From Macrostomum lignano (taxonomy: Eukaryota), in the NCBI GenBank assembly GCA_002269645.1, contig NIVC01002421.1, positions 1-64,000 of the forward strand: a DNA stretch of 64,000 bases. Direction: 5' to 3'. Made by a program: the position numbers and the translations under genes. Under the pieces are notes generated by a model, which had not been told where the DNA came from, did not search any database, and saw nothing but the letters and a program-made list of their open reading frames with translations. This document shows positions 1 through 29,850 of this stretch, piece after piece; the stretch's first letter is position 1, and each line of letters opens with the position of its first letter.

Positions 1-454
1 CTAACTAAATTCATGTACAATTAGGGGACCGAGTCCCAGTTTGTTATTGCTCAAAACCCCCCGCCGTTGCTAACAAAGCGAAGACACCCCACCGGCGGCG
101 GGGAGGCCAAAAATGCTAATTGGTACAAATAGACGCTCATCTCAAACTGGAGCGGCGCTTCGTTTTTCCTGCGCAGTTTTTCGATCTTGAATTGCTCCAT
201 TTGAATTAGTTTCTGGATTATCCAGTTGACAGAAATCCGAGTCTCAAATCGATTATTTGCCTTAACTGTGACATAGAGCAAATTTTAGAGAGACTCCAAC
301 TCAGATTAGATACTAGGAGATCCCGTCAGTTTATACGGTCTCCTTTGACGGCCTGATAGGAGAGACTAAGAGCTGTAAGAACCTTAGACCGCTAGACATC
401 TATCTTAGGAAAGTGAGAACACGAACTCAAAGGCCCCAGAGGAAGACGCGTATA
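1..454 (+). mobile_element. Y-family LTR-like unit, 3' part (GC-box palindrome, TATA-like TACAAATA at 124, R/U5-like end); truncated by window start
   Basis: Near-identical to 10140-10596 and similar to 4236-4684 and 18350-18810; all four copies end at ...CGCGTATA. Confidence 0.65.
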
Positions 455-744
455 GCCCCAGAGAAAGACGCATATAGTACGCACATCATAATAGACACCA
501 ATTAATACTCTTCCCGTTAAAACGTCGTCAGCAACGTCTTTTACGATACCTATCAACATGCGAATTACCATGCCTCCCATTTCATTGCGCTGTACTCCCA
601 TACTTATTAAGCGACATGCGGATCTAACTATGTTATTAAAGCACAGTGAATTGACAAATTGGCAGGGCGATATGTACGATGAAGATATAATTATAATTAT
701 ATCTTATAAGGCGATATAATTATAATGCTCCTAAAATTGCAGTT

Positions 745-1329
745 ATGGAATGTATCGTCTGCTGCGAAGAGGACATCGAGCCATTCGTTTACTGTCATAA
801 CGGCCATCAATTTTGCTATCACTGCTGTACGACAGATGCGATCGATAAATTCCCGTTATGTCGAGCGCCAGCCACCCGGTGCCAAGTATGTGCCACGACA
901 CCTCAAATAAAACTATGCCACAATCAACATTGGGTGTGCCGCGAATGTGCAAACAATATCCGGCGTACCAACAGTCCAAATTGCATCACTTGTGCGACAC
1001 CCATCACGACGGAATTCTGGGACCAAACACGAGACGACCTGCCGACGATACAGCTAACTAAAGAAGCTATGGACCACATGACCGCACGGGCGCTAGCACT
1101 GACAATAAAAACATGGCCGATACCGTTCAACCGTCAGAAACACAGAGAGTATTTGTTCGACCTAATGCGCCATTGTGTCATACACCCGGACAACACCACA
1201 ACCGAGGAAATCTACCTTGACTTCCTCTATGCGACAGAATGCACGGAATACGTGGCAATACAACATCTGATATGGCCCATGGCACGCCCCACACAAAAAA
1301 CACGAGAACTGACACGCGACATATTCTAA
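745..1329 (+). CDS. Tandem double RING-finger (C3HC4, CxxGH-type) protein, putative E3 ligase
   Basis: CIVC..CHNGHQFCYHC..FPLC then CQVC..CHNQHWVCREC..CITC; paralogous over full length to 1669-2268; intronless. Confidence 0.75.
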   Translation: MECIVCCEEDIEPFVYCHNGHQFCYHCCTTDAIDKFPLCRAPATRCQVCATTPQIKLCHNQHWVCRECANNIRRTNSPNCITCATPITTEFWDQTRDDLPTIQLTKEAMDHMTARALALTIKTWPIPFNRQKHREYLFDLMRHCVIHPDNTTTEEIYLDFLYATECTEYVAIQHLIWPMARPTQKTRELTRDIF

Positions 1330-1668
1330 CTAACACAACAAATCGGACGCTCACAATTAAAACCTTAGTATACTAGGAACATAGCTCCATAAAATTTAAA
1401 TGCTTACACTTACGTCTTCTTCTAACATACCATCCTACTACCTGCCAACCCCGAACAATATTCGAGACCAACACAGGCCGGCCCAAGAAGAGAATGCGCT
1501 ATTTTTCACCAATTAAAACTTAGTGACTACAAGCCAATTAAAACGCGATACGTATCCATATATATATACACGCGAAATTCACTTACGATTTATGCCTTCA
1601 CACATCTTTCTGTAATTCCTAAGAGTTCCATCTTCCATTGTTTTGCTTTTGCCTCTATTTATATCATC

Positions 1669-2268
1669 ATGTCTGAGTGCCCTATTTGCCTTGATCCGGC
1701 CCACGCCATGGTCTCCACCTGCGCCTGGGGCCATATGGCCTGCCGTACCTGCGCCGCCAGGGAGGAACTCCAACATTGCTCCATATGTCGACGGGACAGA
1801 GTGTGGTGTGTCCTGTGTGGACGGCTACCGCAGGTGAAGTTGTGCTCCGACGGCCATTGGGTCTGCAACAGCTGCTTGCGCAGTCTGGCTTGTCGGGCTA
1901 TCGGCTACTGTGTTCAATTTGGTTGGAATTTTCTTTCGACCACCACTGCCATTACGGCCACGATCCCGTATGAGCCTGCTCTATGGCTCGATGCTGACTC
2001 TATCCCGCGACTGACTACGCCGGAATTGGCGCGCGCCATCAAGTCATGGCCCGTTACGATGGCCCAAGCCAGGGCCCGGGACGATATGCTCAGGATCGGC
2101 CGGGACGTACTACTAGATGCGACAATTACGACCGAGATGGAGGCCTACCTCGCCATCCTGAACCGCACCGAGTCCACTGCATATACTCCACTGCAGATCA
2201 TGTTTGGGCCTCTGGCGGCGTTGATAATACGGCTGAAATCCGTTCTTGACGACATTTTCATTGCCTAA
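1669..2268 (+). CDS. Tandem double RING-finger protein, paralog 2
   Basis: CPIC..CAWGHMACRTC..CSIC then CVLC..CSDGHWVCNSC; shares C-terminal motifs (IKxWP, TTExExYL) with 745-1329. Confidence 0.75.
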   Translation: MSECPICLDPAHAMVSTCAWGHMACRTCAAREELQHCSICRRDRVWCVLCGRLPQVKLCSDGHWVCNSCLRSLACRAIGYCVQFGWNFLSTTTAITATIPYEPALWLDADSIPRLTTPELARAIKSWPVTMAQARARDDMLRIGRDVLLDATITTEMEAYLAILNRTESTAYTPLQIMFGPLAALIIRLKSVLDDIFIA

Positions 2269-3075
2269 CTACCGCACTCGTTATGTACTGCTTCTATTCT
2301 GCGACGTATTGACTTCACTAATTATTGCTCTTGCTTATTCTTGTTTAGTGCCTCTTGCGTGTTCTGTACACTACCTTACTTAACCTCTACTATATCTACG
2401 ACTATATACTCATCACCACTTTTCATTGTTCTGTACGTTCTATACTTACTTGCCACTGCAATAAATGAAAACCTCTGTCCGCTTTTACTTAATTTCGATT
2501 GAAATTCGAGACGAATTTTTCGTAAAAAAGGGAGATACTGTAGAGATCTCCAAACACAGTAGCCTACTAAAAGTAGTAACATAAAATTATGAACACAAAT
2601 TTAAAAATAGCTATGTGTCATACTCTATTTTTAGTAATACCAGTCATATCACGCAAACAGCGAGTGACTATGCTATTGTTCGAAAAAACCGGTTCTCGAC
2701 ATCTATTTTTAGAACTTCCAAATATGGTAAATGTTAACCTGAATGTAACCCAAGTCTCACCCTTTTCTATTCAAAAACCCCACCTGTCAAATAATAAAAT
2801 TCCTTTCGTGAACTCATAAAAAACGGTTTTGAGGCTTCCCAGGCTTAAGTGTCTGAAAGTGGAAGTTTTCGGGTGACTGATCACCACCCGATCAAACTCT
2901 TCACCCGCACGTTCCGCCGCACCCGCTACCCCATGTACGCAGAGGATAGAACCAATGTACAGTAGTCCCACTAAGGAATACGATGGGCAGCTGAGAACAC
3001 ACGCCAAACCCCAGACGCGATAATCAATGAATACTCTCGCTTATTTCTTTCCAGCACACACTCCGCACAAAGAAG

Positions 3076-3390
3076 ATGGCCGCCTACACACCAGAAAAGG
3101 CTTACACCCGGCGACCTGGCCAGGCTTTTGTGGACGGAGACCTCCACCTTCGGAAGTGCGTCAAGAAAGACGCACAAACACAGGTCGCCGAGTACGATAT
3201 CGATGGCGGCCACTCCATGGCTAAACAAACGGCCGCCGACTATAACGACTGGGGGGTGATCCTGGCCCCAAGAAAGACTCCATGAGACGGGGGCCCGTAT
3301 GAGGCCGCCGTCACCATTAGGCCACGGCCCTCACCGCAGGGCTACCGCCTATATCTATGGAAGATAGGCGACCGCCCGGTCAAGGACTAA
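3076..3390 (+). pseudogene. DAQTQ-family cargo protein, copy with one nonsense codon (TGG>TGA at 3283-3285)
   Basis: Reading through the stop gives DGGPYEAAVTIRPRPSPQGYRLYLW, matching the intact copy 17364-17693 (WEGGPYKAPVTIRPWPTPQGYRQYLW). Confidence 0.75.
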
Positions 3391-3537
3391 TATCAATAGT
3401 ACTAAATGGCCTCGGCGCAACATATACAAAACAAACTATACGCTTGAAACTTTTGCTCGAAGAATACCCATCCTCTGACACAACCACTTATCTAGCACAT
3501 CCTCTTCTACCCCTAATGCAACGTTCACTACCTTTTG

Positions 3538-3670
3538 CAGATTTCTAACCTCTTATATTTGATGAAATACGCACCGGCAACGCGATTTAGTCCCAGCATA
3601 AAGAACCCAAATCCTTGTTCGCACAAGGATTTCGAAAAAAAGGGGGAATTATATTAGAGTTAGAAATCTG
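3538..3670. other. Conserved stem-loop module D (long outer stem plus inner 10-bp hairpin)
   Basis: CAGATTTCTAAC..TATA / TATA..GTTAGAAATCTG outer arms; inner AAATCCTTGT-TCGC-ACAAGGATTT. Confidence 0.7.
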
Positions 3671-4684
3671 AAGTTTTACCTTAAGTTAGTAGATAGATAG
3701 AAATTTATGAAAAGTCCAGGCGCAGCAAAGGGCGAGGCAGAAGAGCACAATGGTACCCATAGATAGCTATTAGAAGGGCAAACAGAAGCAGCAATAAGGC
3801 AATAAATCAAGACAAATAAGAAGGACCGATTCTAATTAAGCCCCTCCCATTCCAGTGAGCAGCAACACCCCGCCGCAGGAACAACGGCACTCAAACCGGC
3901 CGGAGAAGTAAATTAAGTAGCAGCCCGACTTAGGGAACAACGCAGCACGCGGCACGCAGCAGATTTCTGGCGCACCCAGAGGGAGGAAAATGTGCGGCCC
4001 ACCCACGGACTCCAATCCAACCTGAAGAGGCCGAAGAAGGCGAGATCAACCCGAAGTAGTTGACAACCGAGGGAGAGAGAGAGGGCTGTTTAATCATCCA
4101 TGGACAGAGTTAAGAGACGGAAAATTAAGCTCGTTTTATATAACCTTTCTATCCTAGATTTTATCCAACTCAACACATAGATTTGCGAAACCCCGAATAA
4201 TCTCCAACCTTCACACTTAGCAACCTACTAGAACTAACTAAATCCATGTACAACTAGGGGACTGAGTCCCAGATTGTTATTGCTTAAAACTCCCCGCCGT
4301 TGCTAACCTCGCGAGACACATCACCGGCGGCGGGGGGGGCCAAAAATGCTAATTGGTATAAATAGACGCCCATCTCAAACTGGACCGGCGCTTCGTTTTT
4401 CTTGCGCATTTTCGATCTCGAATTGCTCCCTTTGAATTAGTCTCTGGATTATCCAGTTGGCACAAATCTAAGTCTTTAATACAGTTATTTGTCTTAATTG
4501 TCGCGCAGAGCAAATCCTAGAAAGAGTCAAACTCAGCTTAGATACTAGGAGATCCCGTCAGTTTATACGGTTTTCTCCGACGGCCTGATTGAAGAAGTTA
4601 GAGCTATACAAACCTTAGACCGCAAGACATCTATCTTACGAAAGTGAGAACAAAAACTCAAAGGCCCCAGAGACAGCGCGTATA

Positions 4685-4995
4685 CCCTTTGCAGATTTTT
4701 AACTGCTTATATTTGATGAAATAGGAACTGGCACCACGCCTTAGTCACCGCCTAGAGGAACCAAATTCTTGTTAGCACAAGGATTTCAAAAAAGGGGCAA
4801 TCATATGAGTTAGAAATCTGAACTTTTGCCCTAAGTTAGAAGATAGCTATAAATTTATGAAATGCCCAGGCGCATTGAAGGGCGAGGCAGAAAAGAACAA
4901 TGGAACCCCTAGATAGCTATTAGAAGGGCAGACAGAAGCAGCTTTAAGATAAGTGATCAACTGTCAAGTCACTTTAAATATCCGAATCTAATAAA
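4685..4995 (+). mobile_element. Fragment of a further Y unit (stem-loop D 4692-4820 plus downstream block), fused to Gypsy RT by a deletion
   Basis: Homology to 3531-3800 and 9612-9756; breaks at CCGAATCTAATAAA into RT sequence. Confidence 0.65.
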
Positions 4996-7083
4996 AAGAA
5001 GTGGCGAAACACGAGCTACACATCAAGCCCAACATAGAGATAAAGCTTTACAAAAGATATCCCATCCCATACCAATTAATGGGAGAACTACAGAAAACCA
5101 TCGATAGGATGGAAGCCCAAGGGATAATAAAGAAAGCGGCAACTCCATACATCTCGCCAATCTTACTGGTAAAAAAGAAAGCAGAATCGCCCAATGCTAA
5201 CCCTGTTTACCGTCTCTGCGTCGACTTTAGGGACCTCATTATATTCTAGTGCCTGAAAGACAGTCCATGCCCAGAATCCCCGACCTGCTAGCTAAGCTCA
5301 AAGGCTCCATGTACTTCACCACGTTGGATATGGCCCAAGCATTCTTCCAAGTAGCCCTAGAGGAGGAAAGCCAGAAATACTGCGGCATCTAAACCCCGGA
5401 TGGACAAACCTATGTGTTCACTAGAGCACCCATGGGGTTACAATCTTCGCCTGCGGCGCTATCAAGGGCAGTCAGCATAATCTTACAGGGCATACATTGA
5501 GTCTCCACCTACGTGGACGACCTATTAGTGTTTAATGAGACCTTTGAAGACCACCTCAACACGATAAAAACACGCTATCAGCACTCACTAAGCACGGAAT
5601 GAAACTCAGTTGCTGAAATGCAAATTTGCCAAACCGACACAATCAAGCATCCAATACCATGCCTCCAGGCACTGAAGGACGCACAGAAGGAGGATCCATT
5701 CTGCCAGTACATCAGAGCTATGTGGAACGAGCAACCTGGCGGAGAAGATTTGGACTCAAAATAGAAGCGCCATATTGAACGGCACCTAACAGATCATGCT
5801 GAAATTCTGGGCATTATCCACAGAACGGCAGAAAAAACGCAGCAGATAGTACTGCCATTTAAATATCGCGACACAATTTGCTACTCACTGCACGCCCTAC
5901 CCTTGGCCGCACATCTAGATGTCAAGAAGACCTTGGAGAGGATCCGGCGACATTACTTCTGGATCTCCATGGTCCGAGATATACAAGCATTCTGCGACAA
6001 CTGTATGGACTGTGCCAAAAGCAAGTCCGGCAGGATGCATCAAGGCCTCATTCAGATGTCGGAGATACCACTAAAACCGATGGACAAACTGTCAGTGGAT
6101 CTGGTCGGCCCTATGACACCGGCGAGGATAAGGAACGAGTCGGTAACACATTTTTAACCGTTTCGTGCTGCTTCTCCAAGTTTGCCTTAGCGTTCCCAAT
6201 ACCGGACTTGAAAGCCGAAACCACGGCCGAAACACTCTTCCAAGTGTTCTGTACCTTCGGGATACCCGTAGAACTCTCAACGGATAACATCACCAATTTC
6301 ACGGCGACACTACTCACAGATGCCCTAAATATTCTAGGGATACAGCACATTCTAACGTCACCTTACAACCCTCGAGCAAACCATGTGGAACGCCTTCACT
6401 CCACTCTCCACAATATGCTACGACATTACACGGCGGAGAACCCTCACAATTGGCACCAATACCTACAAGCTATAATCCACGCTTAAAACACAGCCAAACA
6501 AGCGTCCTCTAAATACTCACCATTCGAGATAGTGTTCGCCCGGAAGCCACTAATGCCCACAGAATTAACAACACAACTGCAATTCGTACGATACGCAGAC
6601 GAACCCGCATACGCGGAACGAATGCAAGAGGCTATAACCCTAGCCAGAGAAATAGCCCGTCACCACCTACAAGAAGCTCAAAAGAAAAACACAACAAGGG
6701 CAAACAACAGAAGAGTTCCGACCACGATAACAGTAGGAAGCAGGATAATGCTCCAAAATCCAATGAGACAAGCAAAACATCAATCTAAATTTTCTGGACC
6801 ATACGAGGTGGTTAAATGTAACAGTGCCACTTCGGTGCTGATAAAAAAGACAGATGAACCACCGCAAACAGCCTTCCAGGTACATGTGGACAGGCTGAAA
6901 CCGGTGGCCTCACCAGAAGCGCAAGTCTTCCTCCCCGACCTCCGGCCGTGTGATCCCAACCGCCTGCAAAGACAGCAGAAACAGAAGTTCTCGATGGATG
7001 TCGGCATCCAAGTAGAAGATGGAGCGCCGGCGGACACGGCCAGGAAGAAATACAACCTAAGGAGCAAGACCCACCTTCCGTGA
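4996..7083 (+). pseudogene. Decayed Ty3/Gypsy pol: RT (RNase H deleted) plus integrase
   Basis: SPILLVKKK..YRLCVDFRDL, TLDMAQAFFQV, YVDD (~5510), HHCC zinc finger, DLVGP / STDN / VERLH DDE core, GPY motif, VHVDRLKP, C-terminal YNLR; several stops and frameshifts. Confidence 0.93.
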
Positions 7084-7259
7084 CAATTGATGTCATGGGA
7101 AGGGGGGGGGAGAGTACAAAGACCAAAAACATTCATTTTATACTCGTATATGTACTCAGTTGGTATGCGCTGCACTTAACAGTAGAAACACTCACTATTA
7201 ATTACCAATACATACCTGATTAAAATAATTAAAGCACTGACTTATATCACACACAACAG

Positions 7260-7398
7260 ATGTACGACGCTCAGCTTGACTATTTGGACGATGTCTATAT
7301 CGGCGAGGAGACTTCCCCGAATGGAGACGATCGTCAGACCGCTGTTTCAAGACCCGGAGATTCAAGATGAATGGTCGTCAAAGCAGTGTCATCAGTAG
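7260..7398 (+). pseudogene. Internally deleted remnant of the X cargo ORF P (HNH-like)
   Basis: MYDAQLDYLDDVYIGEETSP start and SSKQCH end match the two ends of 13553-14561. Confidence 0.7.
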
Positions 7399-7768
7399 GT
7401 AAGAAAACACCCATAAAACCCAACCAAATAATCCAAATTTAACAATTAAGCGGACAAATTCACGCTTCACCTGACAATTTATTTTTGATTATTCGTACAC
7501 AGTAGTAGTATAACGTAGTAGTGCTATCAAAGATGGACAGAAACACCAGAAAGTAGCACGCATATGGCTTGTAGTATAAAGTAACATTAGTTCGCACGCA
7601 TGATTCTGCGCATAATAAATCATAGCTTAGACCTGTAGCATACGGCAGTTTTAAAAAAGAAAAGTTAAATAGAACAAATACTAAAAATGCTTATATATTT
7701 CCACAAAAAAAATGTTTTCGTCAATCCTTTCGCATAATAGTTACTTAATTCACTGGCAGGTTCCCATA

Positions 7769-8008
7769 TTAAGCAGATAGGGGCCGATAGCGGTACCGGC
7801 AGCAAAACGCCACAATTAAAACGCAGACAACGAGCAGGAGAAATCCGCCTCCGCCTACTCCGCCCAGCACACCTCGGAGCGCTCGGAGCCCAGAATCCGT
7901 CGCTAGAGCTTGATGGGATAGCTCCCTCACGCGCTCCTCCACGGCCAATAAGCGCCGATCCATCCTTGAGAGTAAGCTAGACAATTGCTCCACAGCATGC
8001 TGCGACAT
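7769..8008 (-). CDS. 79-aa coiled-coil + C-terminal transmembrane microprotein (X cargo)
   Basis: ATG at 8008; heptad-like N-terminus, hydrophobic FLLLVVCVLIVAF, then CC-RYRYR; intact paralog at 14952-15191 with mostly synonymous changes. Confidence 0.8.
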   Translation of the reverse strand: MSQHAVEQLSSLLSRMDRRLLAVEERVRELSHQALATDSGLRALRGVLGGVGGGGFLLLVVCVLIVAFCCRYRYRPLSA

Positions 8009-8296
8009 AGTGCCAACGTCAATCCCGTAAAAGCGTAGACAGTATAAGCAGTCAAATTCTATATCCAACACTCGCCAGCGCCGGGGACTCCCTCTCAATT
8101 AAAACTTATATCAGTCCCAGTGGAGGGAACCCCCCTAATAAAAAATCGATCAGTCCGCGGACCCCAAAACCCCCCAGTAGGGGCAAGAGCGGTAAACAAC
8201 CTCAGCGAAGGCCCGTAAAACCCAACCGCGTACATTGTAGCTAAGGATGTACATTGCCAAATAAGAACCAATACAGTTAAAAATCATTCCAGCACA

Positions 8297-8620
8297 ATGG
8301 CTGACCACGGGTGGCGTGCCTATACAGCACTCGATGCTTATCAGAGGCGACCAGGCACCCGTTTTACTGACGTCAACATACATGGGCGGCCCTGTTACAA
8401 GGCAGACGCCCAAACCCAGGCGACTCCGGAAATTATTGATGGGGGACGCTTAGTGGCCGCTGGAACATCGGACCCCGAAGGGGGAGTCATTAGACTCCCC
8501 AGAAGAGAATGGCCTGGGGGCGACTACGTCCCCGCCCCAGACTACGAATGGCCAACGCTCCAGACGCACCGCATGTTCGTCTGGCGCAACCCCAACAAAG
8601 CACCCCCAAATAACAACTGA
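8297..8620 (+). CDS. DAQTQ-family cargo protein (107 aa), unknown function
   Basis: Intact ORF; four paralogs share YxRRPGxxFxDxxxHxxxCxKxDxQTQxxxxxxDGG; synonymous-biased divergence versus 15476-15805. Confidence 0.8.
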   Translation: MADHGWRAYTALDAYQRRPGTRFTDVNIHGRPCYKADAQTQATPEIIDGGRLVAAGTSDPEGGVIRLPRREWPGGDYVPAPDYEWPTLQTHRMFVWRNPNKAPPNNN

Positions 8621-8679
8621 TCGTGCTAACTTAAATTCTAAATAACCTACATTAAATCAAGATATTACGTGACAAATAT

Positions 8680-8797
8680 TAATTTCTAACCCTATATCGT
8701 TCATATTCTTGCGCTATTTCATTTCAGATTCAGGAGATTAATCCTCGTTGCACAAGGATTTCAAAAAAAGGGGGAATAATATAGGGATTAGAAATTA
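8680..8797. other. Stem-loop module D, X-family version
   Basis: TAATTTCTAACCCTATAT / ATATAGGGATTAGAAATTA outer arms; inner AATCCTCGT-TGC-ACAAGGATT. Confidence 0.7.
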
Positions 8798-9300
8798 TGA
8801 AAGTTGGGACAAATAAGAGTTCGCTAAAGGGCAAAGTAAGAAGCAAAAAAAAGCAAGGGGCGAAAGTTCAATTTAAAGATAAGACACCTAAGTGAGAGAA
8901 ATTAAAGAACGGCAAGAAAGTGAAACAAGCTATAGATAAGAAACTAACTCTGACTTTCCCCCAAGATTTCAGACTAAAACCAGATGATATCAAATCGGCC
9001 GAGGTACCAGGCTGAGCCAGTCGGCGCGGTGCCAGGAGAAGCAATACGACACAAAGCCCGACTGGCGGGCGAGATAAAGCAATGGTCAACAGGCCAAGGT
9101 CAGCGGTGACGAACGACCCCAGGGAATAAGAGGACGACTCACCGAGGGACGCACGAGGGGTCTGACGTACGAATCGACTCGAACGATGAACCCTGAACTG
9201 ACCTTTAACCATCGCCTGATGCGACCAATTAACCGATAGCAGATTATCTCTCTCGCCCCGTAGCAACGCGCTAATCTAATGTTGCTGCGTCTGTTTTGGA

Positions 9301-9360
9301 CACCCCGCCGTTGCTAATCAGCGGCGGGGTATGACGTGTATCAAATAATCTATAAAATAG
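9301..9360 (+). promoter_or_regulatory. Putative Pol II core promoter of X: inverted GC boxes, CRE-like TGACGT, TATA
   Basis: ACCCCGCCG-TTGCTAATCAG-CGGCGGGGT-ATGACGTG..TATAAAATAG; repeated at ~16530-16590 and ~16975-17035. Confidence 0.6.
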
Positions 9361-9611
9361 ACACGGCCTTGGCCCCGAAATGGGCAACGGAGAAAAGAGT
9401 CAGAGTTAAGACTGGAAGTCCTGTGCACTTCACAAAACCTTGAGTTTACTTAATCTTCAGCATTTTTGCCGTAGGCGCGAGTAGTAAGCAGCCTCTAGCG
9501 ATCTCTAGTTGTAAGCCCTCTTAGGCTTCAAGGACAGCGAAAGCAATAGAACAAAACCGCTAGACGACCAAGGAGAGAAGCATAACCGAAGCCCGAGAGA
9601 GGAGTCTTACA

Positions 9612-10596
9612 GAAATTTATGAAAAGCCCAGGCGCAGTGAAGGGCGAGGCAGAAGAGTACAATGGAACCCCTAGATAGCTATTAGAAAAGCAAACAGAAG
9701 CAGCTTTACTATAATTAATCAACTGTCAAGTCAATGTGAATAGCCGAATCTAATAAAGCCTCTTTCAATTCCAGTTAGTAGCGTCACCCCGCCGCAGGCA
9801 CAATGGCGACTAAACCGGCCGGGAAAAGCAAACTGAGCAGCGGCCTGACTTAGAGAACAACGCGGCACGCGGCATCTTCTGGCGCACCCTGAGGGAGAAA
9901 ACGTGAGGCCCACCTAGAGACTCCTACCCAACCCGAAGCTGCCCAAGAAGGCGAGATCAACCCCAAGCTGCCTGACAACCGAGAGAAATAGAGGACTGTT
10001 TAATCATTCATGGACAGAGTGTAGAGACGGAAAACTATGCACTTTTTCTATAATCTTTCTATCCCAAATTTTATCCAACTCAACACAGATTTGCGAAAGC
10101 CCGAATAATCTCTAACCTTCACACTTAGCAACCTATTAGAACTAGCTAAATTCATGTACAATTGGGGGACTGAGTCCCAGTTTGTTATTTCTCAAAACCC
10201 CCCGCCGTTGCTAACAACGCGAAGACACCCCACCGGCGGCGGGGGAGGCTAAAAATGCTAATTGGTATAAATAGACGCTCCTCTCAAACTGGAGCGGCGC
10301 TTCGGTTTTCCTGCGCAGTTTTTCGATCTTGAATTGCTCCATTTGAATTAGTTTCTGGATTATCCAGTTGACAGAAATCCGAGTCTCAAATCGATTATTT
10401 GCCTTAACTGTGACATAGAGCAAATCTTAGAGAGACTCCAACTCAGCTTAGATACTAGGAGATCCCGTCAGTTTATACGGTCTCCTCTGACGGCCTGATA
10501 GGAGAGACTAAGAGCTGTAAGAACCTTAGACCGCTAGACATCTATCTTAAGAAAGTGAGAACACGAACTCAAAGGCCCCAGAGAAAGACGCGTATA
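9612..10596 (+). mobile_element. Y-family unit, right part (TATA at 10266), left side interrupted by X1
   Basis: Begins mid-block GAAATTTATGAAAAG (cf. 3702, 4853) and ends CGCGTATA. Confidence 0.65.
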
Positions 10597-10965
10597 CTCG
10601 GGCTTGCTACACTTATTTGCTTGCCTCGATTCTTATTACGCAGCTGTACATCGGATTGAGTTTCTTTGGAGAGGTTAGTAGATGAAAAATGGTCTTTTCT
10701 TTCGTTCTTTGTGAATTTCAATGTGGGTAGAATAGTTCCATATTCTACAGATGGTTCGGTACCTTACCCATTGATTCGTATTCGTAATGAAAAAAACGGC
10801 TCTTGTTCTTGTCTTGCCTTATCTTGTCTTGCTACAGGCACTTGTTCCCCAGTGTCTAGAAGCGGGAATTTGAGAGTGATTGATCACCAGTCTTAATCTC
10901 TTCAGTAGTTGTTATTAACTGTGACCGTATAAATAGTGACCCTGTTATATTTCAACATAACATTT

Positions 10966-11529
10966 GTCTACGAGTTTTTCTATTCAAGGATTCAATTCCA
11001 TCGGTCGCTTGCTTCTGCCCGCGTGCTTGGTGGAGATACGGATAGTTTGATCCTGGCATTGGTTATGGCCAACCCGGAGACGAGTCCTCAGGAGACATTG
11101 TTTAAAGACTTGGTGGAGTGCGGTTTGTTAGATACTAGTAATTATCCACCTTCTCATCCACTTTATACAACAAAGTATAAAGGGAAGTTAATGGCCTGGA
11201 AAGATGAAGTTTGCGGTTGTACGCCGTTGGAGTTTGCATTTCTACGCCCGAAAAACTATTCAATGGTGTATGCAAAGGAAAGCCTCTGTCAGATTGTGCG
11301 TTGCAAGGGCGTGTCGAAGTCAATTGTAAGAGGTATGAAGCACAATGTATTTTTGGGTGCGTTGAAGGATCGAGTTTTGGGGCATGTAACGATGCGGACG
11401 ATTACTTCGCGACGACAGAAGATTTATATTCTTGAGCAGCGCAAGCAGGCGCTTAGCTTTTTCGACACGAAGCGAGCCTGGCTCGATCCCTACTCATCCC
11501 TCCCATTTGGTCATTGGCGGTTGACTTGA
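10966..11529 (+). pseudogene. C-terminal fragment of Maverick/Polinton (adintovirus-like) protein-primed DNA polymerase B
   Basis: YEFFY, GDTDSL (motif C), DTSNYPPSHPLY, KDE, EFAFLRPKNYS, KGV, LSFFDTKR, LPFGH; homology appears to stop upstream of ~10966. Confidence 0.85.
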
Positions 11530-11798
11530 CTTGTTCTCTCTGTCTCTATTTTCTGTCTGTTTATGCTTTTTCTGCTCACAATATATGCGCGCAATTATCG
11601 AATGTATATACAAGAATCTGCCTTTCTTTCTTTCTCTTCGTATTTTTTCGTTTTTCTAGGCCAATGATAGCAGTGCAGGGGATTAGTACTAGGCTTAGTT
11701 TTTTTGATTGGGACGAGGATTACGAGGGTAGTACCAGACTTATTTTAGAGGACGACGATCCTGCTAAGCATAAGATGAACTATGATCCCGCAGCCACG

Positions 11799-12281
11799 AT
11801 GAGCTCCGACGCTTGAACGACGGTCCCGCTGCGCATAGTGCTCACGGATGCCGGGGCAGTAATGCCTCGGCGAGCTACGGCCGGGTCGGTGGGCTATGAC
11901 CTAGCCACGTGCGAAGACCGCACTGTGGAGGCCTTTGACACAGCCATCATTTGCACCGGCCTCCGGGTGATGCTGCCGCTAGGCACCTATAGTCAGATAG
12001 CGAGCCGGTCCAGTTGGGCCAACCCAGGCCTCAATGTGCAGGGTGGCGTGGTTGACCCGGACTATACCGGGGAACTCCGCGTGATCCTGCACAACACGTC
12101 AGATGAGAAAGTTCATCTACTGTGTGCCACCAGCGTGGTTCAACTGATTCTGGAGCGCTGCGTCAGGCCCCCGGTAGAAGTCGGCCGAGCTCGCAAGGGC
12201 CAGCTGCCGGGGGTTTGGCACCGACAACCGGAGCCGGTGGCGGTTCGCGAGACGGGCGGCATGGGCAGCACTAACATCTGA
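11799..12281 (+). pseudogene. dut: Trimeric dUTPase with an in-frame TGA at 11814-11816
   Basis: All five motifs recognisable (VGYDL, SRSS, GVVDPDYTGEL, QLI, RETGGMGSTN); ATG 11799 is in frame with the downstream ORF. Confidence 0.9.
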
Positions 12282-12381
12282 TGCTGCTCGCGCCCGGAGC
12301 CCGTCGGTCGGTGGTGGGAATTGGTGGTGGTTTTTAATACAATATACTGCTCGTGGATTTAACCGCTGTGTGTATAAGCAA

Positions 12382-12725
12382 ATGCAGTTGGTTCTTTTAG
12401 TACAATTAAGTGGGGTGGGAACACAAGGCCAACAGAAGAAGAAGCGAGTGCGTTTACCATCTTTCAGGGGAGCTTCATTTGCCGGGGGTTACCAATTCTG
12501 CGGCCCGGGACACGATTGAGAGAACGTTTGGCGAGGGGCGATACTGGGAAGAATCGGCTCGATAAATTGTGTCTCTTACATGACCTGGCATACGAGAAGC
12601 ACTCGGACGTGGCAGAGCGTAAAAGGCCGATCAACAACTCGAAGCAAGAGCTCGAGAGATTGCTACGGATCCTACAACTAAGTGGGGGGGACGTTTGGCC
12701 GCGAAACTGGTGTCCCGTGTTTTCT
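12382..12725 (+). pseudogene. Parvovirus-type phospholipase A2 domain protein (Maverick/adintovirus PLA2-like), two frameshifts
   Basis: GYQFCGPG / TRLRERLARGDTGKNRLDKLCLLHDLAYEK / ADQQLEARAREIATD across three frames; shifts fall in short homopolymer runs. Confidence 0.8.
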
Positions 12726-13552
12726 AGCATTTTTCTAGCGAGCATGATTAGTGGTGGTGGCGCTGAGAATCTGTTTAAGCGCTGTTATAATCGTTTGCGT
12801 TCTTTCGCGATGAATTATCTGCGTATTAGATTGCGGTAATTTGCTTACTCGTTTTTAATGCGTATGGACTTGCGGCGAATTCAGTCAAATATACTTTGCA
12901 GAGATAAATGGCCAAGGCTAAGGAAGAATTGGACTTTGCATTCAATATTTCTTTTAGGAGAGAGCTAGTGTTGGTTAGTGTGTCGTATAAGATAACTACA
13001 CTATACATACACTATACTTACATCTATAACTACATTTATAACTATTTCATTTCAGACCCAGGAGAATAATCCTCGTTGCACAAGGATTTCAAAAAGGGAA
13101 TAATATAGGGATTAGAAATTAGGACAAGCCTGAACAAAATAAAAGGTTCGCTAAAGGGCAAAGTAAGAAGCTAAAACCAGTGGGCGAAAGTTCAATTTAG
13201 AGATAAGACACTTAAGTGAGAAATTAGAAGAACGGCAAGAAAGCAAAAAAAATCATAGATATGATATGAACTTAATTGTCACTTTCCCCCAAAATTTCAG
13301 ACCAAACGAGATTTCAAAATCGGCCGAGGTACCAGGCAGAGTCAGTCGGCGCAGTGCCAGGAGAATCGAGACGACATGTCACAGAAAGCGGGGGGAGAGT
13401 AGAAAGACTAAAAAACATTCATTTTCATATATATGTACTCAGTTGGTATGCGCTGCACTTTACAATATAAAATATTTACTGTTAAGTACGGCTCGTATCT
13501 ATACATACCCGATTAAAATAACTTAAGCACAGACTCATATCACACACAACAG

Positions 13553-14561
13553 ATGTACGACGCTCAGCTCGACCACTTGGATGATGTCTATATCGGCGAG
13601 GAGACTTCCCCCCGAATGGAGACGATCGTCAGACCGCTGTTTTAAGAACCGGAGATTCAAGATGAATGGTCCAAAAATAGTCGTTTGCAACAAAAATATC
13701 AGCGGTTGCGGCGCGAATGGAAATCAAGAGGGCCACACATCCCCTACGAGATGGGTGACAACACGAAGTGGATGGCTCGATCCGATGACACAACGTACGT
13801 GATACGATTTCACCAAGCTAGTACAACAGACAGTAATCTCCAGCCGGCCAGGTCGGTACAATGATGTAAAATTGTTTGACATCCACCAGGAAATGCTAGA
13901 AATTCCGAGAACGACCAATATGGTGACACATCTGACATGCCAGCGTATCTGCAACAACCCGAGGGACCTCCGATGGTTAAGCGCCGATTAAAACATACTA
14001 GAGCGAAACGCGACTCTCATTTTTGATTACACAAACCAAGATGCCTTCACAGGTCACCATTTCATAGTAATGACAAGGTGGCTCCGCTCACTCATAACGC
14101 ACCCCTGGGGACCTGCAGAAAACCACATGGAACGCCACGTCACTCTGAGAACCTACTTGATAAGCACGCTGCACTATCACGGGATCCATATTTCCCGACA
14201 AGAAATAAGAAAACCGGTAACGCTAGCTTACTCACCGGCCACGTTCCAGTGGCCACAACTGAAAACAGCACTGCTAGCCACCGCACACCCAACCCGGAAA
14301 CAGACGGGTAGTAGAGGCGAAGTTCCCGTAAGGACCGAAAGGGGAGGGTACAGATGGTGAGATTTGACACGATGGTCGAGCGGTTACTCGTGTTCGTGGA
14401 CCAATCGTATTGTCGTACTATCGCACCAAAGTGCTCCCCACAACCCAACACCGGACGAGCTAGCCCTGTGTTTAGGGTTGGTTCAAAAGGTGAAGGGAAA
14501 AATAGGTCTAACGCACAATAGAGAAATTAACAGGTATGATTCGTCAAAGCAGTGTCATTAG
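13553..14561 (+). pseudogene. Decayed ~335-codon cargo ORF P with HNH/His-Me-finger-like motif
   Basis: One frameshift and three stops; HQEMLEIP..VTHLTCQRICNNPRDLRWLSAD*N resembles HxxCxxxxCxNPxHLx7N; the first stop is CAA in the 7260 copy. Confidence 0.5.
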
Positions 14562-14951
14562 TAGGTAAGAAAACACCCATAAAATCCAACAAGAATAATT
14601 TCATACTTAACATTAGCGGACAAACCCATGCTTCAACTAACGATTTATTTATGCTTACAAACGTAGTACGCGTAGCAGCGCCAAAAAAACATCGATTAGA
14701 AATAAAATAAAATGCGTCATACACATAGCCTATAGTAGGTAGCAATACCGTCGTTGAATGATTACGCATGCCCACGCGCTCTTGTGCATAATAATTCTTA
14801 GCTGCAGACCCTTAACATGCTAAAGTATTTTACGGTTACATAAAACAATACAAAACTACCTATATACCGTTATACTAAAACAAAGCAGTTTGTGTCAATC
14901 ATTTTCGCAGAATACAGCAGTCACCTAATAACTTCCCAACGGGTGCCATCG

Positions 14952-15191
14952 TTAAGCCGATAGGGGACGATAGCGATACTTGCAGCAGAACACCGCAATT
15001 AGAACACATAAGATGAGCAGGAGAAATCCACCGCCGCTAACGCCGCCCAGCACGCCTCGCAGCGCCCGTAGCCCAGAGTCAGTAGCCAGAGCCTGATGGG
15101 ATAGCCCTTCCACGCGCTTCTCCAAGACCGATAGTCGCCGTTCCATCTCCGAAAGTAATTTAGACAGTTGTTCAATAGCATGCTGCGACAT
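14952..15191 (-). CDS. 79-aa coiled-coil + TM microprotein, copy 2
   Basis: Intact, same length as 7769-8008. Confidence 0.8.
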   Translation of the reverse strand: MSQHAIEQLSKLLSEMERRLSVLEKRVEGLSHQALATDSGLRALRGVLGGVSGGGFLLLILCVLIAVFCCKYRYRPLSA

Positions 15192-15475
15192 AGTGCCAAG
15201 CCAAAAAAGTTGCAGACAGAATGGAACGAGCTAATCCAAGATAGTTGACTCTCGCCAGCGCCGGGGATACTTTCACAGTAGAACTTATACTAGGCCTAGA
15301 GACGGCCACCTTAATAAAATCGATCGCCCCGCGGACCCCAAACCCCCCCCCCAGTAGGGGTAAGAGCGGTAAATAACCTCAGCGAAGGCCCATAAACCCA
15401 CCCGCGTACATTGAGCTAGCTAAGGATGTACACTGCCAAATAAGAACTAACACAGACAAAAATCATTCCAGCGCA

Positions 15476-15805
15476 ATGGCTGACCGCGAGTGGCGTCCCT
15501 ATACAGCACTCGATGCCTATCAGAGGCGACCGGGCACCCGTTTTAGGGACGTTAATATACATGGGCAGCCCTGCATAAAAGCAGATGAGCAAACGCAAGT
15601 TACACCGGACGACCTCGATGGCGGACGGTCTGTGGCCTCCGGAACCTCGGACCCTGAAGGAGGAGTCATCCGACTCCCCAGAAGGGAATGGCCAGGGGGC
15701 GACTACGTTTCCACCCCTGACAACTCATGGCCAACACTTCAAACTCACCGCCTGTTTGTCTGGCGTAAACCCAACTGGGCGCCCCCGGATGAGGAAAATG
15801 ACTAA
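15476..15805 (+). CDS. DAQTQ-family cargo protein (109 aa)
   Basis: Intact paralog of 8297-8620. Confidence 0.8.
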   Translation: MADREWRPYTALDAYQRRPGTRFRDVNIHGQPCIKADEQTQVTPDDLDGGRSVASGTSDPEGGVIRLPRREWPGGDYVSTPDNSWPTLQTHRLFVWRKPNWAPPDEEND

Positions 15806-15907
15806 ATGCGAGGCTGCAACTGCTAATTAACTAATTGACACAATTCACATCTCACTATCAATTATTACGTTTAATAATTAATTAATCATTTAATTAATGG
15901 CTGCACT

Positions 15908-16023
15908 TAATTTCTAACCATATATCGTTAAAATTCTTACGCCATTTCATTCCAGATTCAGGAGATTAATCCTCGTTGCACAAGGATTTCAAAAAAAGGG
16001 GGAATAATATAGGGATTAGAAAT
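15908..16023. other. Stem-loop module D, X-family version
   Basis: Homologous to 8680-8797. Confidence 0.65.
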
Positions 16024-17363
16024 CAGAATAATCGGGACAAAATAAAGGTTCACTAAAGGACAAAATAAGAAGCTAAAAGCAGGGGGGCGAAAGTTCAATT
16101 TAAAGATAAGACACCTAAGTGAGATAAATTAAAGAACGTCAAGAAAGCGAAATAAATCATAGATATGATAAGAATTTAATTGTAACTTTCCCCCAAGATT
16201 TTAGACCAAACCCGATGACATCAAGTCGGCCGAGGTACCAGGCAGAGCCAGTCGGCGCGGTGCCAGGAGAATCGATACGACATGATACCCCGACTGGCGG
16301 GCGAGATAGAGCAATGGTCAACAGGCCAAGTCAGCGGTGGCGTACGGCCAGGGAGCAAGAGGACGATTCACCGAGGGACGCACGAGGGGTCTGACGTGCG
16401 AATCGACTCGAATAATGAACTCTGAACTGACCTTTAACCATCGCCTGATGTGACAAACTAATAGATATCAAATTATCTCTCTCGCCCCGTAGCAACGCGC
16501 CAATCTAATGTTGCTGCGTCTGTTTTGGCACCCCGCCGTTGCTAATCAGCGGCGGGTATGACGTGTACCTAAAATTCTATAAAATAGACACGGCCTCGGC
16601 CCCGAAATGGGCACTCCGGGAAGATTTAAGCTTCAGAACTGGAAGTCTTGTGCACTTCGCCAATAAATCTAAAAGGACTCATATTTGTTCTTTGTGCTAA
16701 AGGCACGAGTCATAGTCAGCCAAGTAGCGATCTCCTTTGTAAGCTCTCTTAGGCTTCGAGGACAGTGGAAGCAATAGAACAAAACCACTAGACGACCAAG
16801 AAGGAGAGAAGCATAGCCGAAGACCTAAGAGAAGTCTTACACGACATGATACCCCGACTGGCGGGCGAGATAGAGCAATTGTCAACAGGCCAGGGTCAGC
16901 GGTGACAGCTATCAAATTATCTCTCTCGCCTCGTAGCAACGCACTAATCTAATGTTGCTGCATCTGCTTTGGCACCCCGCTGTTGCTAATCAGCGGCGGG
17001 GGATGACGTGTACCTAAAATTCTATAAAAATAGACACGGCCTCGGCCCCGAAATGAGCAACCTGAGAAGAATCCAAGGGACAGCAAGAGTTCCAGTGCAA
17101 TTCACGGAAATCCCAAGATTACTGTTCGTTATTTGTGCTACAGGCACGAGTCTTGGCCAACAAATTGCGATCTCTGTTGTAAGATCTTTTAGGCTCAAGA
17201 TCGAGTGAAAAGCTATATTGATCAAGAACAGGAATTAAAAGGTCAGACTTAGTCAAAAATAGTTAGAGCCTAAGAGAATTCTTACACTACTAAGGGATAT
17301 TTTGGGCAGAGAAAAACACGAGCCAGGTCGCCGAGCTTACGAGCTTAATTTTAGCGCATACAC

Positions 17364-17693
17364 ATGGCCGCTTACACCAGCGATAAAGTCTACGCCCGGC
17401 GACCTGGCCAAGCTTTTGTGGACGTGGATATCCATGTCTACAGGTGCGTCAAAAAAGACGCACAAACGCAGGTCACCGAGTGTGACATAGATGGTGGCCA
17501 TTCAGTGTCCACCCAAACCGCCGAGTCGGACAACGATTGGGGACCCGTGTTGCCTCTCACGAAGATCCCATGGGAGGGAGGCCCCTACAAGGCCCCCGTG
17601 ACCATCCGGCCGTGGCCCACGCCGCAGGGCTACCGCCAATATTTATGGGCCAAAGGTGCCCGCCCAGAGACCGAGGAAGGCGGCGATAATTAA
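17364..17693 (+). CDS. DAQTQ-family cargo protein (109 aa), Y type
   Basis: Intact ORF, paralog of 3076-3390. Confidence 0.8.
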   Translation: MAAYTSDKVYARRPGQAFVDVDIHVYRCVKKDAQTQVTECDIDGGHSVSTQTAESDNDWGPVLPLTKIPWEGGPYKAPVTIRPWPTPQGYRQYLWAKGARPETEEGGDN

Positions 17694-17814
17694 AGCGGCC
17701 CCTAGCTATAACTATGAATTATCTCTTTTTAACTAACTATTTTCCATTTTATCTATCTATATACCTCAGCCAGCATATCTTCCCTACCTCAATATAACGC
17801 TTAATTACCTTTTA

Positions 17815-17944
17815 CAGATTTCTAAGTCTTATATTTGATGACATACGCAACCGCAATGCGATTTTAGTCCAAGCATAGAGGACCCAAATCCTTGTTAGCA
17901 CAAGGATTTGAAAAAGGGGCAATCGTATAAGAGTTAGAAATCTG
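17815..17944. other. Stem-loop module D, Y-family version
   Basis: 18/19 complementary outer arms (17815-17833 / 17926-17944); perfect 10-bp inner stem 17886-17909. Confidence 0.75.
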
Positions 17945-20375
17945 AAGTTTATCTTAAGTTAGAAGAAGATAGTTAAGTCCCTTTCCATTCCAGTCAGTAG
18001 GGACAACCCGCCGCAGGAACAATGGCGATTAAACTGGCTGGGAGAAGCGGCCCAGCTTAAAGAACAACGCGGCACGCGGCATCTTCTGGCGCACCCTGAG
18101 GGAGAAAACGTGAGGCCCACCTACAGACTCCTATCCAACCTGAAGTGGCCCAAGAAGGCGAGATCAACCCCAAGCTGCCTGACAACCGAGAGAAACAGAG
18201 GACTGTTTAATCTTCAATGGACGGAGTTAAGAGACGGAAAATTAAGCTCTTTTCCTGTTATTTGTCTATCCCAAATTTTGTCCAATGCAACACATAGATT
18301 TCCAAAAAACCCGAATAATCTCTAACCTTCACACTTAGCAACCTACTAGAACTAACTCGATTCATGTACAACTAGGGGACTGAGTCCCAGATTTTTATTG
18401 CTTAAAACCCCCCGCCGTTGCTAACCACGCACGCGAAGACACCTCACCGGCGGCGGGAGACGCAAAAATGCTAATTGGTATAAAATAGACGCCCATCTCA
18501 AACTGGAGCGGCGCTTCGTTTTTCCTGCGCAGTTTCCGATCTTAAATTGCTCCATTTGAATTGGTCTCTGGACTGTTCCAGTTGGCACAAACCAAAGCCT
18601 TAAATCAATCATTTGTCTTAATTGTTGCGCAGAGCAAATACCAGAGAGAGTTACCCTCAGTCTAGATACTAGGAGATCCCGTCAGTTTATACGGTTCTTC
18701 TCTGACGGCTTGATAGGAGAGATTAAGAGCTGCACGAACCTTAGACCGCTAGACACCTATCTTAGAAAGTGAGAACATCAACTCAAAGGCCCCAGAGAAA
18801 AACGCGTATAAAGATTTTTCGGTCCCGAGCGGCGCTACCTCGGATCTTGGAAAAGACCTGTCTTCGAACAGCTGAACTTGTGTTTCACAGTTTCTTTGTG
18901 TTATCAGACGAACACGCGCGCCAACCGCTATCTCCGTTGTAATTTGCGAGTTAAGCTAGAACCGATAAGGAGGGTCTTAAAATGGGGGCAATTATAGAGG
19001 GCTCGGAAATTCACTAGCATAGGAAGTTCTTTCGAGACGCGTTTAAGCTGGACGAAGCAAAGAATTATCAGTATAGGCAGAGGAAAGACAAATAAGACAG
19101 ATAAGATGGTAGAAGGCCGAATGCGGGCAAACAACAGTGACCCATAGCAGCATATGACAAATTCACAGCAGCCCCCAAACCCAAATCTGGCAATCAATCC
19201 CGAAGGGCGTGGGAACCGAAGAGTGGACGCGCGATCCGATGTATGCGGAAATGCAGTGGAAAGACTCAAAAACTGACCTCCACCTCCCCCGCTCGATCGC
19301 TCGAACTCAACCAACGTAACCCGCAAGTTTAGCGTCAAAACCGTAAAAAGTGGTTTGTTTCGGCCCTAAGGCGCTTAACTTGTTTTACTCAGAGCTTGGC
19401 CTCGTAAAAATAACCGTTTTACTATTAAACACTATTCTGTGATTTATACGGTCATCGTATGTAGCAATAACAACTGCCTTTAGTTTAAGGCTAGTAATTT
19501 TTATACTTGGTTAATTCAAAATATATTACTCTACCAGAACAAAACGAATGGTCCTAATGCAAAGTTATTATCCATAAATCTATGAAATTAAAGACATTAA
19601 AATCAATCCACACAAATTGAAATGATGTTTTTTAATTGATAGCGCTAGTTGCTGTCAATGCCGAAGCATCAACGATAACCAGCTGTGCGTTTAAACTCAC
19701 CAAACAGAGCCGTAGAATTTAAAGAATTCCAGCCCGTCTAGCTCGTAAAAGCCATGGCGAGGGAGAGACGACAAGACTGTCGAGCAGCGCGTGTGCTGAT
19801 ATATTATAGAAAGGCCGCTTGTGCATGCACAGGGGTTGCTGGACACCCGGGCATGTGTGGGCAATCCAGATTGGCCGAGAGGGAGAGGGAGACAAGGGGA
19901 GAGAGAGAAGAGAGAGACTCAGTTTTCTGTACAGGCCCAAGGCTTCCGTTCTGGGTTTCAAGACCTTGTCAAGGCCGAAGAGCCTCGTTTCCGCGGCCCC
20001 TCTTCCGAGTGGGGGGGGGCTTGGGGTTGGTGTTGCGTCTGTTGGCTGATGGCTGAGTTCGTAAATGTGCACATGACTCCACCCTACGTTTTTCAATTCG
20101 TCTATTAGGGCAGAAAAGCTAGGACGGGTAAAAGATAGGACGTGCTTGAAATTGGTCTTCTGCTTTTCGTGGCGGACCCTGATAAGTGAAAATTCATACT
20201 TTTTTCGTGTGCTCAAGGTTCTAAGGAATTAGATTCGGCTTCGGGATAAGTCTGCTTCGAGCTAGAATGTTCATTTATCTGTCCAACCAAAACCAAACAA
20301 CATTTTTACTCCTGTATCTGTATCGGATGGCAATAGGATTACAGATGCTCTGCTCTGCCTTCGACTTCGATCATG

Positions 20376-29329: not shown

Positions 29330-29850
29330 AGTGCTGACTTTGCTGACATTGCCGACTTTGCTGACTTTGCTGACTTTGCTGGCTTTGCTGACATTGCCGA
29401 CTTTGCTGACTTTGCTGACTTTGCCGACTTTGCCGACTTTGCTGACTTTGCTGACTTTGCTGACTTTGCCGACTTTGCTGACTTTGTTGACTTTGCTGAC
29501 TTTGCTGACTTTGCTGACTTTGCTGACTTTGCTGACTTTGCCGACTTTGCTGACTTTGTTGACTTTGCTGACTTTGCTGACTTTGCTGACTTTGTTGACT
29601 TTGCCGACTTTGCTGACTTTGCTGACTTTGCCGACTTTGCTGACTTTGCCGACTTTGCTGACTTTGCTGACTTTGCTGACTTTGCTGACTTTGCTGACTT
29701 TGCCGACTTTGCTGACTTTGCTGACTTTGCTGACTTTGCTGACTTTGCTGACTTTGCTGACTTTGCTGATTCTCTTCTCTTTACTCACTATTCTGACGTG
29801 TTCGTCGATATTCTTCAGCTTTGCGCCATGCTCGTATTGGTAGCACAAGA
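29330..29850 (-). repeat. 9-bp microsatellite (GACTTTGCT)n (~29330-29770) next to an orphan copy of the KY-like exon-1 end (~29788-29850)
   Basis: KLKNIDEHVRI|GTGAGTAAAGAGA matches the exon1/intron1 junction at 28202. Confidence 0.8.

Follow-up and report, generated by a model that had tools for sequence, protein, structure and literature searches.

A broken piece of about 2 kb of a virus-like Maverick element lies amid Gypsy retrotransposon ends in the Macrostomum lignano contig NIVC01002421.1. The reading that we favour, with a probability of about 0.75, is that the piece is a Maverick copy trimmed by deletions and lying within the right half of a pile of Gypsy 3' ends that is both nested and recombined. 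Coordinates are those of the window, i.e. the whole 64,000-nt stretch of DNA that was analysed. X and Y designate two LTR families recognized by self-comparison of the window, and X2 and Y2 are our own labels. Contigs of four public runs from four studies (runs X1, X5, X6 and X9) were compared with 9400-14540; one run is possibly the source sample, and runs X1 and X5 are RNA by our guess. The features are, from left to right:

9611-10596, plus strand: Gypsy LTR Y2, about 50 nt short at its 5' end and intact at its 3' end (self-comparison)
10597-10959/10960, no strand assigned: 363-nt piece of a third dispersed repeat (contigs and self-comparison)
10960-11529, plus strand: 3' end of pPolB, the last 189 codons, 94-98% identical to P0001, P0027, P0028 and P0030
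11530-11663, plus strand: native intergenic spacer, in which a pyrimidine tract and an AG immediately precede the dUTPase start (sequence, and contigs bridging the pPolB end and dUTPase)
11664-12281, plus strand: dUTPase with a 50-codon N-terminal extension (ATG at 11664, stop at 12279-12281; PF00692, E 4.7e-22)
12382-12727, plus strand: parvovirus-like PLA2 in three frames, its 3' end cut off (profile match)
12720-12739, no strand assigned: junction left by a deletion, where a direct repeat of 9 nt occupies 12720-12728 and 12731-12739 (contigs of public runs)
12731-12839, plus strand: 3' end of a further donor ORF, 35 codons, with a Gly-Gly-Gly motif (open frame)
12992-13044, no strand assigned: G-free array of a 12-nt unit in 4.6 copies, ending in ACT (TRF score 53; G-free run)
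13042-13383, plus strand: Gypsy X2 piece that starts in the middle of the 3' UTR and includes a hairpin, a polypurine-tract-like run at about 13091-13098 and the first 280 nt of the LTR (90% to both other X modules)

The three damaged plus-strand genes described in the initial annotation are indeed at this place: the pPolB piece, a dUTPase gene with a TGA, and PLA2 in three frames. Its starting point, 10597, has to be moved, as the viral sequence begins at 10960 and 10597-10959 is another repeat. In tblastn with five sibling pPolB proteins, 10960-11526 corresponds to residues 1234-1422 of P0030 (1,422 aa) and to residues 804-992 of P0001 (992 aa) at 95% identity, and the sequence upstream of 10960 matches none of the five. 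The PF03175 family is recognized in P0001 (E 7e-21) and in P0030 (E 3e-20); a Pfam scan of the window piece alone matched no family. Loose contig ends before 10959 in runs X5 and X9, when translated by eye, give the ten P0030 residues that precede the window piece. The native pPolB therefore continues before 10959 in two of the four runs, among the loose ends listed. Run X6 has no cover over 11120-11291, which carries no weight as evidence. The sibling pPolBs contain an endonuclease VII domain. An OTU-like N-terminal domain, which is a trait of the Alpha adintovirus pPolB, was not detected by a Pfam scan of P0030, and the first 470 aa of this protein match three related loci weakly (E 3e-5).

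Close relatives of the piece occur in the same animal. Six named M. lignano gene models are close to it, at 94-98% identity except for one short model at 87%. Its sequence cluster has five members, filed under six accessions that all bear the name M. lignano. The best database match is likewise an M. lignano protein (95%); the remaining 25 of the 26 matches are only 31-43% identical. Since the M. lignano assembly is described as redundant in a passage of PMC12801592, the six pPolB models may represent fewer loci.

Contigs of run X5 (11429-11705) and run X6 (11452-12344) bridge the end of pPolB and dUTPase, and a run X5 contig bridges dUTPase and PLA2. The dUTPase gene is broken by an in-frame TGA at 11814-11816, beyond which the catalytic domain is open and the PF00692 match is found. 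Its product is 92% identical to P0048, and its best relatives with solved structures are dUTPases (E 3e-28). The only protein found when homologs of it were sought at E<=1e-20 was that of the window itself, a weak blank. The TGA is missing from the listed contigs of all four runs, bearing in mind that contigs drop rare variants, and two sibling dUTPase gene models read through the site, indicating that the TGA is either specific to the window copy or an assembly error.

The accessions of the two dUTPase siblings, PAA65277 and PAA84794, directly adjoin those of the pPolB proteins PAA65278 and PAA84795. Locus names are shared as well, and the contigs that hold the dUTPase and the pPolB models have the same lengths, 253,392 and 652,882 nt. 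This record numbering suggests that polymerase-dUTPase is the native order of the donor. The presence of dUTPase beside the polymerase is thus a trait of the Maverick family, not of the locus. It is uncommon but has a precedent. BLAST queries from three loci with a related polymerase found dUTPase in none of 110 such loci, and the gene is not mentioned in main-text passages of PMC10748475 and PMC8097293. It does label one adintovirus map, in Fig. S2 of PMC8502044.

The 110 related loci have a pPolB of matching type and come from alignment scans, the second being represented by the best 80 of its 331 loci; a single-protein scan of viral contigs gave no matches, whereas the alignment scans did. 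A profile of seven PLA2 proteins from related loci aligns with three collinear pieces at 12487-12513, 12504-12632 and 12623-12718 (E 2e-4, 2e-15 and 1e-3, respectively), the frame breaks lying near 12504-12513 and 12620-12632. Plain BLASTP missed the third piece (E 40), the score of which was reached in one of 300 shuffles. The middle piece is 59% identical over 39 aa to the PLA2 of two related loci, L014 and L023, both of which look like complete elements; among longer proteins, 0 of 19 candidates were found for it, which is again a weak blank. A run X6 contig over 12315-13015 spans both breaks and has only one gap, so that at least one PLA2 break is real outside this assembly.

The PLA2 gene is cut at 12721/12731, and the pX part of PLA2X is absent from the window. 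This deletion junction and the 3' end of the fourth ORF that follows it had been missed in the three-gene inventory. The 35-codon tail at 12731-12839 belongs to no Pfam family and had 0 matches in 1.84 billion representatives (a weak blank); it may resemble a protease-cleaved core protein. A run X5 contig departs from the window after 12721, and contigs of runs X5 and X9 have 461 and 1,008 other nt before 12731. Because the contigs of other copies leave the window after 12721 and hold other sequence before 12731, the window copy appears to have been deleted at this point, by over 1 kb if the two sides are collinear. The joined form is present in a run X6 contig. A repeat-flanked deletion is a signature of templated repair by polymerase theta. 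The 9-nt repeat found here fits templated end-joining (compare PMC4032859, in part), and could also be obtained in reverse transcription. A comparable direct repeat is found near 0.27% of the positions in 100-20100, a figure obtained post hoc.

Capsid, ATPase and protease genes had been reported as absent from the window. In agreement with this, 13 queries for core genes, taken from three related loci and in part labelled penton and core by us, matched only the Gypsy integrase at 6004-6531 (E<1e-4). This is the only rve integrase within the window, and the fragment itself has none. Similarly, 1,760 ORFs from the 110 related loci matched the window only at the Gypsy integrase, pPolB and PLA2. 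Of 92 inverted pairs of at least 14 nt, the 25 longest include none that surrounds the cassette, in line with the reported lack of a TIR. That core genes are missing from the window is no surprise in a fragment that has suffered an internal deletion. This copy is unable to make a polymerase or a particle. The description of the plus strand as T/G-rich applies to the whole cassette when compared with the LTR modules (G over C, Fisher p 5e-9; T over A, Fisher p 3e-19), but the T-richness does not extend to the dUTPase and PLA2 parts (AT skew +0.04).

Among the 110 related loci, integrase was found in 46, ATPase in 25, PLA2 in 11, the major capsid protein in 10 and dUTPase in none; only 37 of them are at least 10 kb long, and the genes were called by BLAST queries from three of them. 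The 11 loci with PLA2 include nine with ATPase, eight with integrase and six with the major capsid protein. In L014 and L023, the PLA2 gene sits with integrase, ATPase, protease and major capsid genes, and a Pfam search of L014 bears out its capsid, integrase, ATPase and PLA2. A passage of PMC8502044 gives the pairing of PF03175 pPolB and parvovirus-like PLA2 as that of Alpha adintoviruses. The siblings, the PF03175 family and this pairing uphold the Maverick/adintovirus origin proposed for the cassette. To judge from its genes, the donor would be a resident multi-copy Maverick family of the Alpha-adintovirus type, not a stray virus. It is very improbable that the donor was an integrated DNA virus of another kind, or a pPolB element without a capsid, and not a Maverick: the lack of dUTPase in all related loci, the low identity of the nearest outside pPolB relatives (31-43%) and a donor known from three genes without core genes would all agree with such an origin, but the PF03175-PLA2 pairing is that of Alpha adintoviruses (PMC8502044, in part), related loci with both genes have integrase, ATPase, protease and capsid, and dUTPase is on the adintovirus map of Fig. 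S2.

Like the Alpha adintoviruses and Mavericks treated in the relevant part of PMC8502044, the family has a PF03175 pPolB, a parvovirus-like PLA2 and several genomic copies in an animal host. The locus differs from them as a fragment that lacks integrase, ATPase, protease, penton, hexon, a TIR pair and the pX tail, and the donor differs by the dUTPase directly after pPolB and by the endonuclease VII domain of the sibling pPolBs. A decayed copy is ordinary, erosion being the rule for Mavericks: 96% of vertebrate Maverick loci are eroded, as stated in a part of PMC8097293. A Maverick is expected to have TIRs, a 6-bp TSD and the end motif (AGT)2//(ACT)2 or (AG)3//(CT)3, whose right half, (ACT)2 or (CT)3, the same source gives for vertebrate Mavericks. 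The left end of the window copy has been lost. With these eroded loci the present one shares stops, frameshifts, truncation and the lack of a discernible TIR pair; it differs in its flatworm host and in the ACT and 12-nt array without (ACT)2 or (CT)3. A literature search that lay outside subscription journals and Repbase found nothing on a Macrostomum Maverick or Polinton family in titles or opening lines of abstracts, and the portions consulted of the supplements contain no Macrostomum row (PMC10748475, PMC8502044) and no Maverick or Polinton (PMC5730564). What is gained is a pointer to a Maverick family of a laboratory flatworm, with a full-length pPolB model of 1,422 aa and a dUTPase directly behind it.

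On the left, the Y2 LTR is 97% identical to 1-454 and 87-89% to the other Y LTRs, and has a TATA-like box at 10266. A TGG-led primer-binding site was not found after 10596 or after any LTR end in 1-20200. Because no such site lies next to it, Y2 is a 3' or solo LTR. In contrast, a TGG-led motif that resembles a primer site follows native X and Y LTR ends in runs X5 and X6, the native Y end being in run X5. This motif may match tRNA-Glu; the window has no tRNA gene for comparison with it. A hairpin and a purine run precede six LTRs in 1-20200. The lack of primer sites, together with these six purine-tract-preceded LTRs, indicates that the window has 3' LTR ends only.

Between Y2 and pPolB lies the piece of the third repeat. 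Contigs of runs X5 and X6 match it to 10960 and then continue with 280 and 314 nt unlike the window, while other upstream letters appear at 10836 in run X5 and in four contigs of run X9. The repeat has a short likeness to 2848-2903, the score of which was reached in 0 of 200 shuffles, and an inverted short likeness to 19442-19475, outside the LTR stack. The first likeness had made 10597-10959 a candidate for an accessory region of the X and Y elements; this proposal is weakened by the inverted one. Linked contigs overlap by 30 nt, and a contig of run X1 starts exactly at 10596, not 30 nt inside the LTR. The lack of the usual overlap suggests that the third repeat also occurs without the Y2 LTR.

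On the right, the tail-to-X junction lies about 50 nt upstream of the purine run. The first half of the array is joined to the viral tail in run X6; a contig of run X1, 189 nt long, spans the junction completely and shows 0 differences. The array ends in ACT, without the (ACT)2 or (CT)3 motif of vertebrate Mavericks, and may be a remnant Maverick terminus or repair filler. Among the termini of related loci of at least 8 kb, distant inverted repeats were detected in five, none of which resembles the 12-nt array. Native X sequence extends upstream of 13042 in run X1. Two other candidates were dropped. The end of a run X6 contig at 13015 is weak as the inner edge of a TIR, for the contig has two more unmatched letters. 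Similarly, LTRs might have been thought to start at a pyrimidine-AG block (4683, 13042), with 13042 as a clean insertion boundary, but X homology extends upstream of it and the two junctions are offset by about 35 nt in register.

The bridging contigs also bear on the idea that the whole arrangement is a chimera, produced when repeats were collapsed during assembly. In its favour would count the TGA, present in no listed contig of the four runs, the redundancy of the assembly (PMC12801592, in part) and the junctions at 10596 and 10960, both unbridged among the contigs listed. Yet the tail-to-X junction is bridged by the run X1 contig without a difference and the PLA2-to-tail junction by the run X6 contig, in two studies, one of them possibly that of the source sample. 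A chimera is thus hardly credible.

Under the favoured reading of a trimmed Maverick copy, the events may have been as follows. The host would carry a Maverick family of low copy number and Alpha-adintovirus type, with the order pPolB, dUTPase, PLA2 and further genes. By analogy with what is known of such families, the donor's pPolB would copy linear DNA, dUTPase would clear dUTP and PLA2 would be the presumed entry enzyme. A copy would have settled inside a Gypsy X element or next to it, a short way upstream of the polypurine tract, possibly by means of the Maverick's own integrase, with the 12-nt array as a remnant terminus. Trimming at the DNA level would have produced the 5' break, which fused the copy to the third repeat, and an internal deletion (over 1 kb if collinear) would have taken out the genes after PLA2. 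A Y-family LTR element would have inserted on the left. The 5' halves of the nest would lie beyond the window, and the Y1b LTR overlaps Y2 by 145 nt at 90%; clean nesting alone therefore does not fit, and extra deletions or recombination are needed. In this account the gene identities, the siblings, the native order, the three breaks and the LTR families come from the data, whereas the sequence of events, the repair pathway and the nature of the array are deduced.

The initial annotation had the cassette captured into, or overrun by, the LTR system, possibly as cargo of an element termed X3. Overrunning is supported by the present data; X3 cargo is not. The left LTR is devoid of the primer-binding site that native ends have in runs X5 and X6, and the third repeat intervenes between this LTR and pPolB. 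Moreover, the flanking LTRs belong to different families, Y on the left and X on the right, with fewer than 20 alignable nt in common; the best local match between the left Y LTR and the right X piece is 17 nt, and a matching partner could lie upstream of the window. A polypurine tract and an LTR start are present downstream of the cassette, as in cargo-carrying LTR elements. All features of known sense in 1-18810 are on the plus strand, which cargo capture would give too. Co-orientation was discarded as evidence for capture, since it is not significant when only the cassette and a RING pair count as independent draws. As to full Maverick flanks in other haplotypes, which by the initial annotation would make this simple nesting, that prospect is half borne out: native sequence does extend past the pPolB break and past PLA2, but in other copies of the family, which may not be haplotypes of the locus.

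An alternative model, copy-choice capture, keeps some chance because the right junction is just upstream of the polypurine tract. It assumes that read-through or polycistronic Maverick RNA was co-packaged with Gypsy X RNA, and that a template switch by reverse transcriptase placed it upstream of the purine tract, where accessory genes have their slot; this chimera would then have integrated and been overlaid by other LTRs. The junction about 50 nt before the purine tract, where the hairpin, the tract and the LTR start are kept, would suit this model, as would the sense of the cassette, which is that of the LTR modules, and the small accessory ORFs of the X and Y elements, which occupy the slot between pol and the 3' LTR. 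Precedents exist, in the parts of the sources concerned, in the virus-LTR hybrids that form in Aedes cells (PMC6797480) and in rotifer LTR elements that acquire extra ORFs (PMC5408684, PMC6431247). However, the LTRs do not form a matched pair, the left one has no primer site, the left neighbour of pPolB is the third repeat, which is also found inverted outside the stack, intergenic spacers are retained, no break follows a splice AG, and a single copy of the chimera is known here. The X LTRs that flank the cassette differ by 10%, whereas the cassette differs by about 2% from the contigs of other copies; this is a weak argument against capture. On balance, we regard capture as unlikely.

Bolder, and in our estimate improbable, is a proposal in which Gypsy would have taken up a polycistronic Maverick transcript by template switching and the 1-18810 stack would be a unistrand small-RNA cluster that archives genes of DNA viruses, much as clusters in Aedes do for RNA viruses. 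Capture, if true, would mean that an LTR element has transduced genes of a DNA virus-like element, which would surprise a specialist. The non-retroviral Aedes EVEs that lie among Ty3/gypsy LTRs in piRNA clusters (PMC6797480, in part) are similar in that a viral fragment is found between Gypsy LTR pieces in an LTR-dense stretch. The Aedes donor, however, is an RNA virus that requires a retrotransposon to become DNA, whereas the DNA element considered here was already genomic. The X and Y elements resemble the LTR elements that carry captured ORFs (PMC5408684, in part) in having room for accessory genes between pol and the 3' LTR. dUTPase is known in LTR elements. In the elements with captured ORFs these are intact across whole families; here the genes are broken and have no matching LTR pair, and the dUTPase accompanies pPolB at other loci. 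The stack at 1-18810, all on one strand, includes two virus-like RING genes.

The first part of the window (1-18810) is a stack of co-oriented Gypsy 3' ends belonging to two LTR families, X and Y, whose LTRs end in TACA and TATA, respectively. It holds six blocks of hairpin plus purine tract and seven LTR 3' ends, four of which are fused straight to mid-element X or Y sequence. Neither a primer site nor gag was found in this stack. The features within it are as follows.

433-477, 22-nt tandem duplication, at a Y LTR end
745-1329, plus strand, RING-finger ORF 1, intact (Sina_RING)
1669-2268, plus strand, RING-finger ORF 2, intact (Sina_RING)
3076-3390, plus strand, accessory ORF ahead of purine tract
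7769-8098, antisense, X ORF with a hydrophobic stretch
8297-8620, plus strand, accessory ORF ahead of purine tract
10801-10831, six copies of a 5-nt unit, immediately ahead of 10836
15476-15805, plus strand, accessory ORF ahead of purine tract
17364-17693, plus strand, accessory ORF ahead of purine tract

The accessory ORF (107-109 aa) lies 5' of the purine tract in both families, with 44% identity between the X and Y versions, and matches no Pfam family and nothing in the Atlas protein clusters. X has a further ORF upstream, near 13553. The two short duplications, both beside junctions, resemble the repeats at 12720-12739 and 12992-13044.

The RING-finger ORFs are paralogues (195 aa at 26% identity, E 7e-25). 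A Y LTR end, at 454, is directly 5' of the pair, and no primer site precedes them. Their closest Atlas clusters are viral RING or SAP proteins (score 0.82), which we take as a lead only. No counterparts were found among the 110 Maverick-like loci searched.

Sequencing run X6, labelled with a second organism, carries the dUTPase-PLA2-tail portion of the Maverick cassette (window 11452-13015) in the deleted, joined form. It is near-identical to the window over 12315-13015, and additionally contains a more divergent PLA2 copy. The label may denote a sister species or be a mislabel. An endonuclease VII domain (PF02945) lies within pPolB of the M. lignano sibling polymerases P0001 and P0030.

Elsewhere, the window contains host-type genes and other repeats.

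from 20279, tandem array, 20-nt unit
26104-36163, minus strand, tandem array of three host genes that encode transglutaminase-like and KY-like Ig domains
from 29242, tandem array, 9-nt unit
44533-47464, minus strand, acyl-CoA synthetase-like (AMP-binding) gene
51122-52210, plus strand, ankyrin-repeat gene
from 52465, tandem array, 40-nt unit
57001-57879, plus strand, MFS transporter gene
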